Positions 1 through 64,000 of a stretch of 64,000 bases of DNA are shown piece after piece (the stretch's first letter is position 1; each line of letters starts with the position of its first letter). The notes beneath the pieces were generated by a model. The model searched no databases. It was given only the letters and a program-made list of their open reading frames with translations, and was not told the DNA's origin. Location of the stretch: sequence record MH494197.1; one strand, 5' to 3'. The translations under genes were made by a program, and so were the position numbers. This DNA is from Escherichia phage CMSTMSU.

Positions 1-452
1 GGCTGTTCCTGTGGTGCTGGTTGTGGAGCATTGTCAGGTTGAGCTTGTGGTGCAGGACGTTGTTGTTCTTCACCTTTATCATCATCACGATAATCATTCA
101 TCAAGTCACGTGCTGCTGCCAAGAGCAGAACCAACATCTTTAGGAGTAAAAGTACGACGACTGTTATTTCCCAGTGTTTTATATCAAGGTTATTTCCTTT
201 GAAGAATTGTGCAACATCAGCATATGGTACTGATGGCTGTGCTTTACCGTATTTGTGACCAACATAGCGTTTAAATTCAGCCCAAAGACGGTTTGCTTCT
301 GCACCAACTTCTTGTGCACCTTGTTCTATGACCACTACCGAAAAAGCCTTTTACTTTTCCTTTTGCACTATCTACTGCACTTTGTGAACGACTATATGGA
401 CGAGCTTCATTTAGCTCTTCATCATTATAGTCTAACATTTCATTAAGTATAC

Positions 453-988
453 TCATGTCTCAATCCTTTTACCAAAACCAGCACTCATATATTGAGAGTA
501 TTTATTGTCACTTTTAACTGCTTCAATCGCATCTTTAACTGTGGTTACAGCACGTTCTTCACCAGCTAAATCATGGCTGTCTTCTGGTTTGCCAAAATCA
601 ACACCAATTACTGGTTCGTAATCGTCAAAGTCAATATCATCTTCGAGTTCGGTCATTTCTTGTTGACGTGGTTCATCTTTACTACGTACACGGATTAGAG
701 CTTCAGTCATACTTAGTAGGTTGCCAATTTCATACATTAGTACGTTTGATTGAACACCACGGTGGCATTTGAAATCAAACATCCAAATTTCACCACAATC
801 TAATTCATAAAATCTAGTGGTCTTTCCATGAAAATAGTTTTCTTTAGTGCACCAATATCAAATGCATCATAACGATCCATTAGGCGTTGTGATACTTTAC
901 TTAGTTGCTCATTGGTAGGTTCAACTGCAAACTTGACTCGGTATTCAAAACTGGTTTTATCCGTTAGGATTTGTTGTAATCTATTCAT
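453..988 (-). CDS. hypothetical protein (two ORF fragments 800..988 and 453..782, probably one gene)
   Basis: Adjacent same-strand ORFs with acidic segment; no recognisable motif. Confidence 0.3.
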
Positions 989-1142
989 TTTAATAACTCC
1001 AGGTCGTTTAAGTTATTTATTTCTGTTCATTGCTGCAAGCATTTCATTGCAGGTTTTATGTGCTACCGCCTGTCCTTCGATGGCTGTTGGGTCACCAACT
1101 GATTCAGGTTTCTTAGTTTTAAGGTTTAGATCGATTTCCATC

Positions 1143-1475
1143 TTATCTTTCTTGGAGTTGAAGATCTACTAATTTAACGTCAGAATCAATGATTTTTGCA
1201 TGAGCATCGAGAGCAATTTTTAACATAGAGTTTGCAGCGTTAATCATTTCTGCTGCAAAACGGTCTTCACAGTTGAAAGCACGGTCGAAAATATCTTCAA
1301 ACTTACGTTCTGCCATCTGTGCTAAACGATCTAATTGAGTTTTTCTTGCTGTAATATCTGGAAGTTCACGCAACTGAACACGCATAGCTTTCAATTTTTC
1401 CATTGCAGCTTTTGCCTCTTCTAGTGAAATTTCAGTTTCACTCTGTTCATCTTCGTCATCCTGATACAAATCCAT
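1143..1475 (-). CDS. hypothetical acidic coiled-coil protein
   Basis: 110 aa ORF rich in E/K/A/L heptad-like sequence; function unknown. Confidence 0.3.
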   Translation of the reverse strand: MDLYQDDEDEQSETEISLEEAKAAMEKLKAMRVQLRELPDITARKTQLDRLAQMAERKFEDIFDRAFNCEDRFAAEMINAANSMLKIALDAHAKIIDSDVKLVDLQLQER

Positions 1476-1565
1476 CTCTGTATCTTCTTCAGGCTCGGCC
1501 TGTCATTTCCATCCATTGTTTAGCACTAGGTAATCCCAGTGCTTCATCTACTTGTTGTTTAGGTT

Positions 1566-1901
1566 TCATTTTTTATATAGATTCCTTTCTGTAATGATTT
1601 TAAATTCCAATCCGGTTATTTTTGCAAAATTCCATTGCATATACCCATTTTGATTGGTTAATCGCAACAGTGATTTTGTCTTTCTTGGATTTAGCCATTT
1701 CCATGTGACATTGTTTGTACGGTTTAACTTCCAGTACTTGAGCATGTTGTTTACCATCTGCACCAATATAAGTAAAAAATCAGGCCAGTACTGATGAACT
1801 GCATTATCAACTGGATTCACGTAAGGAATACTAAATGGTCCACACTCCACTCTATAACCGCAGGGTTGTTGTCTAAAGATATCATGATATCCTTTTCCCA
1901 A
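1566..1901 (-). CDS. hypothetical protein
   Basis: 111 aa minus-strand ORF, no recognisable motif. Confidence 0.3.
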
Positions 1902-2022
1902 GAACTACGGTATATAGGTTGGTTATTACTTTTATACTTTTGTATATTTTTATAGGGAAGATACCTTGAGCCTGTTTGGAGTTAGTAATCTTCGCTGGGT
2001 TAAACTGCTGGTTAAATGCCAT

Positions 2023-60697: not shown

Positions 60698-62647
60698 ATT
60701 CTACTCCTTTGTATATAAATTTACCAATATCTTCGATGTATAAACAGATTCCACCTCGATCATTTAACACAAGCCAATCACCAAAACCACAACTGATGTT
60801 GCATATATTAAATTCTTCAATACCATCCGGTGAATACGCAATGAATGGACATATTTCATCTGATATACCATTTACATAGTTATTACATATTAAATCAAAT
60901 GTATGTGAACTATAAGAATTATCAGTACTGAAAATGTGCATTAATGAACTAGATAGAATTACTATTGTTTTTCCCACATTTTTAAAAATCGTTATTCACA
61001 ACAACTACTCCATGTCAGTGTTGTAATGAAATTATATCACCGAATCAAGATATGTCTCATGAGATTCGCATTTCATCCAGATATAAACTACATGCTTCGA
61101 AATTGTTGTCAGCACTTAAACCTAAATCAACCATCAGACCACAATGCGTTCCACAGAATTTCTTTATGTATAGTTTCTTATTGTTTGTACTTAAGTCGTA
61201 TACATATTCATTTTCGAAAATAGTTTTAAATCATTACAAATACTTTTACTATCTTCATTACATCATTATGATACTCATATGGTATTCCATCTAGTTCATC
61301 AATGATAATAGCAAAACCATTGTCATAGTACTTTAGTTTATTGAATGTTTGTATATCCATTTAATATATAATCTCACTTACTTCTATGGTGTAGACACCA
61401 TCATCAGTCATTAATCTAACTGCAACTTTAATATTACTAGACATTCGTGTAACTATCAATCCAATAATTATACCATTCTTTAAAGTACCATTATGGTATC
61501 TAACTTTTACTTCAGTTTTATTATCAATTAAGTATCTTCTAATTATGTGTATTTCCGTTCTAAACAGTTCTAAATAAACTTCACTATACTCCTTATCAGA
61601 ACCATCAGCACAGCTATACAATAAATGTACCTGTTCTAACAAAAGTTTTAAATTCATAAGAACCTCACAGATTTAATATTACTTGTTACATGTTTAAACA
61701 CAGTGTTATCGAACTTGTAAACAATTGTATTAAGTGATTTATGAAAATTAACCTCACACTAATGCCTTGGAACCATTGATTGTACAGACCGTGGATGGTA
61801 AGTTGTTTGCTAATATCTCTTTTCATCTAAACATAGTGAACTAATACAATCATAATAGAGAGGTTCAAGAACTTTTCAGTACTAAGAAAATCGAAAGCAA
61901 GATCATCTATTTGTTTTATGTAATTGAATAAATTTTGATAGTACTCATTCATTGTCAATCCTCTTGAATTTAGCATTATTCGAATAAGTATATGAATGTC
62001 CAAAATCATTTACACCATGCACATTCAATACACCGTCGATGAAATAGATTCGGTCAATGGTGAGTTCACGTTTATAATCCGAATCATCATACCAGCACAG
62101 AACACGAATACCTTTATACTTTGTAGTTAGCTCTTTTCTAATGTAACTAAGTACTCGATATAACTTTTGAATAGCTCTAAGTCCTGCTCAAACATCATTG
62201 TTCCTCGTATAATTCCATGTCATCAACTCCAACTTGGCGAATTGCAGTACTTCTTTTAAATGTACCTTTTTCATATAAACATACAGTTAAACGTATTTCA
62301 CACTTCAATGCACTGTAATAAATCATATCAATAACACCATATGTTTCATACATTTCTAAGTATACATTTCGTCCTAAGTACTTTTCTTCTAAATCAGTAA
62401 TTAGACTATTGATAAGATTACCTATCTGTGTTATATCTGTGTGAAATTTATCCATTACAATAATCCTCTCACATAAAACATTGATGAAAATAGATAATCT
62501 TCAGTACTGGAATTTAGTAGTTTATCAAAACTATAATTTTTATGCTTATTTTCATACAAAGACATTCTATAGTATCGTTCTATATTTTCTAAGTAGTCTT
62601 TTCGTAATAACATCTGTGTTGTTACATTCACTATAATGTACCTTAAA

Positions 62648-62680
62648 AGAAAAAGGGACCAATATATGATCCCTTTGTAT
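62648..62680 (-). terminator. hairpin terminator downstream of pnk
   Basis: aagggac caatatatga tccctt inverted repeat. Confidence 0.4.
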
Positions 62681-62711
62681 TAGAAATTTCCTTCAGCCAC
62701 TTGGAAAACTT

Positions 62712-63600
62712 TCAACCCAAGTAGCTTACGCCACATGAACACAACTTGATTGCGGTCATCATATACCTTTTAACATCGTAATGATCAACCACATTTTTCA
62801 TGTACAGGTCGAATTTGACAACATCATCAGGACGTTTATCATCAATGTCTCGCATAAACAATGCATCGTAAGGAATACCCCAATTCTTAAGCCACTGTTC
62901 GGTATCAGCACGACACCCTTCAGTACGCCCACTCATGACGATAATCTTGCGTTTATGAAAACTGCTTCTGCGATAATAGACAAAATAACTTCTTCGTCTG
63001 GTGTATCCGAGTACAGTACTTTCATCGAACGGGTTACGTCCCCATTTATGAGCAAGAGTACCGTCGATATCAACGATAATAGCAGCTTCTCGTGAATTAC
63101 CATAGTAACCAATGTGTAATGCCTTACTATAATAGTACGTATCTGCCATAGTGTCAATGATATTATCTTGTACTGAACGCTCACGCTGGAGGTTATATTT
63201 CTTACAAAGTTTTACGAACTCTTTAATCTTAAAGAATTCATGAACATCTGCACCACGGTCTTCATTAGGTACAAAATCATCATAGAAGTTCTTTTCTTTG
63301 TAATCATAACCATTATCTATAGCCCATACTTTCCATAGATTACGGAAATGTTGTTTAAGGTTTGTATCGGATATGATGATGTTCCAACCATTCTCTGCTG
63401 CTGAATTTGCTGCACTGAACTGTAAATTAGTTACGTACTGCTCATTAGCATCGTTGAATTTGTAAGCATCATGTGACCCAGCCATAGATTCACGAATATC
63501 ATCACGGTTGATGTTGATAGTCTTGGATTTGGCTTTTTAATCTCTTGCACTGCCCATGTAGTTTTACCACACCGTGCAATCCAACTGTTAGTGTGATAGT
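62712..63600 (-). CDS. pseT: polynucleotide 5'-kinase / 3'-phosphatase (T4 PseT-like), frameshift in P-loop region
   Basis: IIISDTNLKQ, IIVDIDGTLAHKWGRNPFDE, IIVMSGRTEG, DKRPDDVVK closely parallel T4 Pnk VIISDTNLNP, VIFDVDGTLAKMNGRGPYD, IVVVSGRESG, RKDDVVK; CGKTTWA P-loop recovered in shifted frame upstream. Confidence 0.85.
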
Positions 63601-63635
63601 TGGCATCCTTTAATCCTCTAAAAATTTAACATGCT

Positions 63636-63956
63636 CTATATTATGATAGGTGAGCCATTCCTGTGGTGTTCCTTGCGTATTAAAACACCAATATACGCAA
63701 TACCATTAATTAGACCATTACTATCAGTATTCACATCAACTTTCACAATCTCGGAATCGTACCAGTGTTTGAATGTGTAATCCCAACATCTGACTTTCTT
63801 TCCAATAAGATTGCTCTTGTATTTGTCAATCATTTCATCGACGATAGTTTGTACTGAATTTTTAATTTCATCTTCTACTGACTTTATATATAGTAAATTA
63901 CTTTGTGCATTGTTTATCATTGTATTTCCCAATCCCAAATCGCTTGAGATTTTCAC
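63636..63956 (-). CDS. hypothetical protein
   Basis: 106 aa ORF. Confidence 0.3.
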   Translation of the reverse strand: MKISSDLGLGNTMINNAQSNLLYIKSVEDEIKNSVQTIVDEMIDKYKSNLIGKKVRCWDYTFKHWYDSEIVKVDVNTDSNGLINGIAYIGVLIRKEHHRNGSPIII

Positions 63957-64000
63957 AAGTACAGATTCATCACAACGAATACTAGCAGTATCATTGGATG

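Follow-up and report, generated by a model that had tools for sequence, protein, structure and literature searches.

Are the many broken genes in a 64-kb stretch of the genome of Escherichia phage CMSTMSU (MH494197.1, positions 1 to 64,000; hereafter the window, meaning this whole stretch of 64,000 nt) a property of the phage or of its sequence record? A preliminary description of the window, made from the letters of the DNA and a list of its open reading frames (ORFs), had noted that the tail sheath gene, nrdD, tk, phoH, the genes for the CCA-adding enzyme and ligase, pnk, a set of “fibre genes” and others were each split into pieces in different frames, and had attributed the breaks to insertion or deletion (indel) errors rather than to biology. 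Alignment to close relatives leads us to the same answer with a probability of about 0.95: behind the record is a viable phage of the 121Q type, read by nanopore into a consensus that was left unpolished, and the fragmentation of its genes is a sequencing artefact. The phage itself almost certainly carries intact genes.

Megablast searches of a phage collection with two 20-kb stretches of the window returned jumbo Escherichia coli phages of the 121Q/PBECO4 type (genus name, as we assume, Asteriusvirus). Seven to eight records (Turkey3, vB_Ec-M-J, WPEC3, WPEC5, EC.P1, fEgEco12 and Ecwhy_1) matched over the full query at 95-99% identity, and 121Q and PBECO4 themselves were 83-86% identical to the window over 90-95% of the 20-kb queries. 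In every close match the reference stretch exceeded the window by 100-170 bases per 20 kb. Three independently sequenced phages with collinear annotated regions served as the reference set: Turkey3 (PQ471515, Czech Republic), fEgEco12 (PP777464, Finland) and WPEC3 (PV611058, Thailand). All three are jumbo myophages of the 121Q/PBECO4 group which are collinear with the window across its full 64 kb and share with it the gene order tail tube, sheath, CCA-adding enzyme, tk, NrdDG, PhoH, ligase and pnk. At aligned bases, with gaps ignored, the window was 98.5-98.7% identical to them, and its substitution divergence from these viable relatives was ~1.3-1.5%. By its nucleotide identity to named phages and its collinearity with them, the window, over its 64 kb, belongs among the 121Q/PBECO4-type phages. 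The phage itself is a new but unremarkable strain in a well-sampled group of jumbo phages. An exact 40-mer taken from the window had no match in IMG/VR.

The window and the three references were aligned four-way with MAFFT, and each difference was assigned to the single sequence that disagreed with the other three. By substitutions the window is an ordinary member of the group, with 269 private substitutions versus 212-538 in the references, but by short deletions it is an extreme outlier: 279 window-private indel events were found, consisting of 276 deletions (376 bases) and three one-base insertions, a ratio of 92:1. The corresponding private gap events numbered zero in Turkey3, one (2 nt) in fEgEco12 and ten in WPEC3, the last being mostly long (1-3 nt in only two cases). 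The window-private deletions were predominantly of 1 nt (219) or 2 nt (40), with ten of 3 nt and seven longer. Together the private indels, one per ~230 bp, affect 379 bases or 0.59% of the window, which is equivalent to a consensus quality of Q22.3, and their distribution was close to Poisson (mean 17.4 and variance 22.8 per 4 kb). Thus ~280 deletions which we regard as artefactual are present in the window and absent from the references, while the 269 private substitutions represent real strain-level divergence.

The consequences for gene structure are severe. A mechanical ORF list of the window consists mostly of short minus-strand ORFs, and only three exceed 300 aa. Of the genes of Turkey3, 113 map within the window; 20 of these have intact ORFs and 93 (82%) are broken, including those for the sheath, NrdD, tk, PhoH, CCA-adding enzyme, ligase and pnk, in agreement with the fragmentation described before. 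Each of these seven is a single intact gene in all three references: sheath (2664 nt), NrdD (at least 1806 nt), PhoH (1440 nt), DNA ligase (1419 nt), CCA-adding enzyme (1116 nt), pnk (933 nt) and tk (585 nt). The ORF breaks in the window are frameshifts rather than in-frame stops: 234 frameshifting indels fall in 59.1 kb of coding sequence. This corresponds to one frameshift per 253 nt of coding sequence, a density two to four times higher than the one break per 0.5-1 kb given in the preliminary description, and large genes hold up to ten frameshifts, beyond the two to five pieces per gene that had been counted. Its caution that coordinates of multi-fragment genes are approximate was correct.

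Where are the deletions? Homopolymers, at which breaks had already been seen in the cases checked, were the principal context: 220 of the 279 private indels (79%) were in or adjoining runs of at least three bases. By category, the events comprised those in runs of at least five bases (n = 163), in runs of three or four (n = 57), at Dcm sites (n = 28) and in other contexts (n = 28), plus the insertions (n = 3). The share of reference homopolymer runs that had privately lost a base in the window climbed steeply with run length, being 0.06, 0.14, 0.8, 3.3, 39, 79 and 92% for lengths of 1, 2, 3, 4, 5, 6 and 7 respectively. Moreover, with Dcm sites excluded, G/C runs fared far worse than A/T runs of equal length: 34% versus 1.2% were deleted at length 4 (p = 3e-16), and 4.1% versus 0.4% at length 3 (p = 1e-8).

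A second context, the Dcm motif CCWGG, accounts for 10% of the indels and had been overlooked. The window is AT-rich (about 35% G+C) and has 31 Dcm sites in its 64 kb; 28 of them carried a private deletion or substitution, versus 2-7% of motifs differing by one base and 15% of GGWCC. An unbiased scan of 5-mers outside homopolymers ranked CCAGG first (15/16, p = 2e-23) and CCTGG next (11/12, p = 4e-17), and many non-homopolymer deletions sit within one of these two motifs. Several of the deletions in other contexts precede GAA or GAG. Apart from CCWGG, the 5-mers TAGGA (8/40), AGGAA (8/49), AGGAG (5/17) and TCCCT (7/23) were also enriched for private errors; these are likely to be additional basecalling errors tied to particular k-mers, with no second methylation motif involved.

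These contexts match the published error profile of nanopore sequencing. In nanopore consensus sequences of Klebsiella pneumoniae, Dcm motifs (CCAGG/CCTGG) were the largest error class under default models and homopolymer-length errors the second (PMC6591954), and the final Albacore version reached a consensus quality near Q22 (Wick et al. 2019, PMC6591954). At the read level, nanopore sequencing underestimates homopolymer length, with deletions predominating in longer runs (Delahaye and Nicolas 2021, PMC8486125); furthermore, basecalling is poorer in G/C than in A/T runs, and deletions away from homopolymers are often followed by k-mers such as GAA, CAG and CGG (PMC8486125). The corresponding features were all found in the window: i) runs are under-called, with error rising with run length and an excess of deletions; ii) errors are concentrated at CCWGG; iii) G/C runs suffer more than A/T runs of matching length; iv) errors are independent of gene structure and evenly spread. 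In its errors at CCAGG/CCTGG and homopolymers, its shortened runs, its poorer G/C runs and its error level of ~0.6% (Q22), the window is like a nanopore consensus of native enterobacterial DNA. On the other hand the mix differs, as homopolymers contribute 79% and Dcm sites 10% of events in the window, whereas ~70% of errors lay at Dcm sites in the K. pneumoniae benchmark (PMC6591954).

The same contexts bear on whether the errors might stem from another homopolymer-sensitive platform, either the flow chemistry of 454/Ion Torrent or unpolished continuous long reads (CLR) of PacBio, which we consider very improbable. Flow chemistries do mis-count homopolymers, the class that makes up 79% of the events. 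However, they read amplified, unmethylated DNA, in which no CCWGG error arises, and they over-call and under-call runs alike, while the errors of PacBio CLR, for the most part random insertions, average out in a consensus; neither behaviour accords with 28 affected Dcm sites out of 31 and a deletion-to-insertion ratio of 92:1. The excess in G/C runs and the GAA/GAG contexts also fit the nanopore reports. The Dcm component excludes the flow-chemistry platforms, and it shows the sequenced DNA to have been native and to come from a dcm+ host.

A slimmer chance still attaches to the idea that the indels are real, the window being a defective, decaying phage copy (a non-viable variant or remnant) which has gathered frameshifts after loss of function. 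Read literally, the sequence has disruptions in 93 of the 113 genes, and one private deletion of 22 nt in a tail tube gene is no classic basecalling error. Yet decay predicts insertions as well as deletions, an excess of nonsense changes and relaxed selection, and none of these marks of a pseudogenised element was found. Insertions were three against 276 deletions; apparent nonsense substitutions were two in the window versus one to four in the reference lineages by the same method; and 63% of the window-private substitutions in genes were synonymous, versus 21% expected at random and 53-60% in the references, with 162 of 250 coding substitutions at codon position 3. Such mostly synonymous change implies that the lineage has been under normal purifying selection, like its viable relatives, in the very genes that look broken. 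Moreover, biological slippage would neither strike the Dcm motif at 90% of its sites nor affect 79-92% of all 6-7-base runs, and a substitution divergence of 1.3-1.5% leaves too little time for ~280 fixed frameshifts. The deletions were also blind to coding: runs of at least five bases were deleted at 136 of 263 positions in coding (52%) and 24 of 45 in intergenic DNA (53%; Fisher p = 0.87), and lengths that are a multiple of three were not preferred. Thus the attribution to indel errors is borne out by alignment to close references, in which 276 private deletions face three insertions, with a dependence on context and an indifference to coding.

The damage could furthermore be reversed. When only the window-private deletions were filled with reference bases and the three private insertions dropped, the number of intact genes rose from 20 to 108 of 113, the longest open frames grew from 530, 450 and 382 aa to 913, 907 and 895 aa, and open frames of at least 500 aa increased from one to four. 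That real frameshifts are instead bypassed, by programmed ribosomal frameshifting, transcriptional slippage or an unusual genetic code, is of negligible probability: although the breaks lie in A/T runs that are possible slippery sequences, and poly(A) frameshifts are rescued by transcriptional slippage in some degenerate endosymbiont genomes, the relatives, ~98.5% identical, encode the same proteins in one frame with neither a conserved site nor a shared two-frame architecture, the runs that were shortened measure just 4-6 bases, rescue would be needed for all 234 frameshifts in the 93 genes, repair of indels alone restores the ORFs and so points to frame changes and not to reassigned stop codons, and the events are equally frequent in intergenic DNA. 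The restoration of ORFs by indel repair, with the lack of a nonsense excess, likewise led us to reject reassigned stop codons or in-frame stops as the origin of the short ORFs.

The private status of the indels, their dependence on context, their blindness to coding and their reversibility were measured here directly; the use of an Oxford Nanopore platform and the omission of a polishing step are what we infer from the error pattern. On this account, Oxford Nanopore reads of native phage DNA would have been assembled to a consensus that was not polished with accurate reads. The basecaller would have under-counted nearly all runs of at least six bases and ~40% of 5-base runs, and G/C runs already from three to four bases, and, at host Dcm sites (CCWGG), would have misread the signal near 5-methylcytosine. 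Some 280 small deletions would follow, shifting the frame about every 250 nt and so making 93 of 113 genes look broken.

Several points weigh against an origin in unpolished nanopore data: i) the platform is deduced from the error pattern alone; ii) 28 deletions (10%) belong to neither the homopolymer nor the Dcm class; iii) the 22-nt tail tube deletion, with its garbled flanks, is atypical of a basecalling error; iv) five of the 113 genes are still broken after the conservative repair; v) no clear enrichment of private errors was seen at the Dam motif GATC (6% versus 1-5% for controls), unlike the effect at Dcm sites. Older nanopore models sometimes failed at Dam sites too.

Selected genes, with their private indels, are as follows (coordinates in the window).

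2023..3082, minus strand: tail tube paralogue 3 (1095 nt in the references), 9 indels including the 22-nt private deletion
3093-3869: tail tube paralogue 2, adjoining paralogue 1, intact
3957..4642, minus strand: tail tube paralogue 1, 1 frameshift
5021..7670, minus strand: tail sheath gene, 8 indels of which 7 are frameshifting, intact after repair
8760..9546, minus strand: neck / head-tail adaptor gene, 4 frameshifts
12320..13427, minus strand: CCA tRNA nucleotidyltransferase gene, 7 frameshifts
15840..16761, minus strand: endolysin gene, 3 frameshifts
19151..19730, minus strand: thymidine kinase gene, 5 frameshifts in 585 nt
30258..32977, minus strand: 909-aa gene, PHROG 3573 (unknown function), 6 indels
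33591..36276, minus strand: 899-aa paralogue of the 909-aa gene, PHROG 3573, 10 frameshifts
36352..36820, minus strand: NrdG (anaerobic ribonucleotide reductase activase) gene, 2 frameshifts
37129..38929, minus strand: NrdD (anaerobic ribonucleotide reductase) gene, 5 frameshifts
44570..46003, minus strand: PhoH-like gene, 6 frameshifts
55017..56431, minus strand: DNA ligase gene, 3 frameshifts
62680..63606, minus strand: polynucleotide kinase gene, 5 frameshifts

The 22-nt deletion in tail tube paralogue 3 lies at ~2245-2262 (reference GTTCACCAAAGTACTTAAAGAA, with alignment ambiguity allowed), and several bases just upstream of it are mis-called; it may have arisen as a local glitch in assembly or be a true variant. 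The two ~900-aa paralogues (30258-32977 and 33591-36276) are the largest genes in the window, are separated by one small gene and match PHROG 3573 end to end. The 909-aa gene is probably one of those that had been called fibre genes, a label for which we found no support, as the paralogues match only that PHROG and a Pfam search of both returned no domain; no gene of the window could be recognised as a fibre gene. The ligase gene is indeed split as first described and is specifically that of the DNA ligase, the RNA ligase gene lying beyond position 64000. Labels given to the same gene also conflict between the reference records, one example being “Tn7 transposition protein tnsA” in one and “head closure protein” in another.

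In contrast to the indels, private substitutions were patchy (mean 16.8 and variance 183 per 4 kb): 34, 53, 27 and 31 fell in individual 4-kb bins at 0-4, 40-48 and 52-56 kb, versus 2-9 in several others. Such clustering, which is as expected from mosaic phage evolution, suggests exchange with unsampled relatives. Inserted genes distinguish the references from one another and from the window, e.g., a WGR-domain gene in fEgEco12 (L003, 23559-24530), and the window is without some reference-specific insertions. A 1452-bp insertion found only in WPEC3 lies near the Sir2 region of that phage (L006, ~14170-16380), where several small fragmentary coding sequences are annotated. Scans of the 64-kb window found no tRNA gene and no Rfam family at gathering threshold, although indel errors may weaken such detection.

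Several short palindromes were scarce. GCGC was absent from the window (26 expected under a second-order Markov model) and from each ~66-kb reference stretch (27-30 expected), and GATC and CCGG occurred at ~0.45 and ~0.47 of expectation, a depletion common to all four genomes. CTGCAG and GGTACC were also absent (9.9 and 6.5 expected respectively), with GTAC over-represented 1.34-fold. The shortage of GCGC, GATC, CCGG, CTGCAG and GGTACC probably reflects restriction-site avoidance; the shortage itself is real and separate from the sequencing artefact.

The corruption of ~90% of CCWGG sites would imply that cytosines in the packaged DNA are ordinary and fully methylated by the host Dcm. The error pattern may, at about even odds, serve as an accidental read-out of methylation, by which the cytosines of the packaged phage DNA are neither hypermodified nor protected. 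The lack of an error excess at GATC could mean that the DNA is without Dam methylation, fitting the two-fold depletion of GATC; equally, it could mean that the basecaller coped well with N6-methyladenine. The value of the finding is practical and not biological. Polishing should precede any annotation of the sequence: gene calls, protein counts or claims of pseudogenes drawn from the unpolished version would be wrong, and protein databases built on it would gain hundreds of spurious fragments, while the sequence itself can be rescued by polishing or by reference-guided correction of frameshifts.

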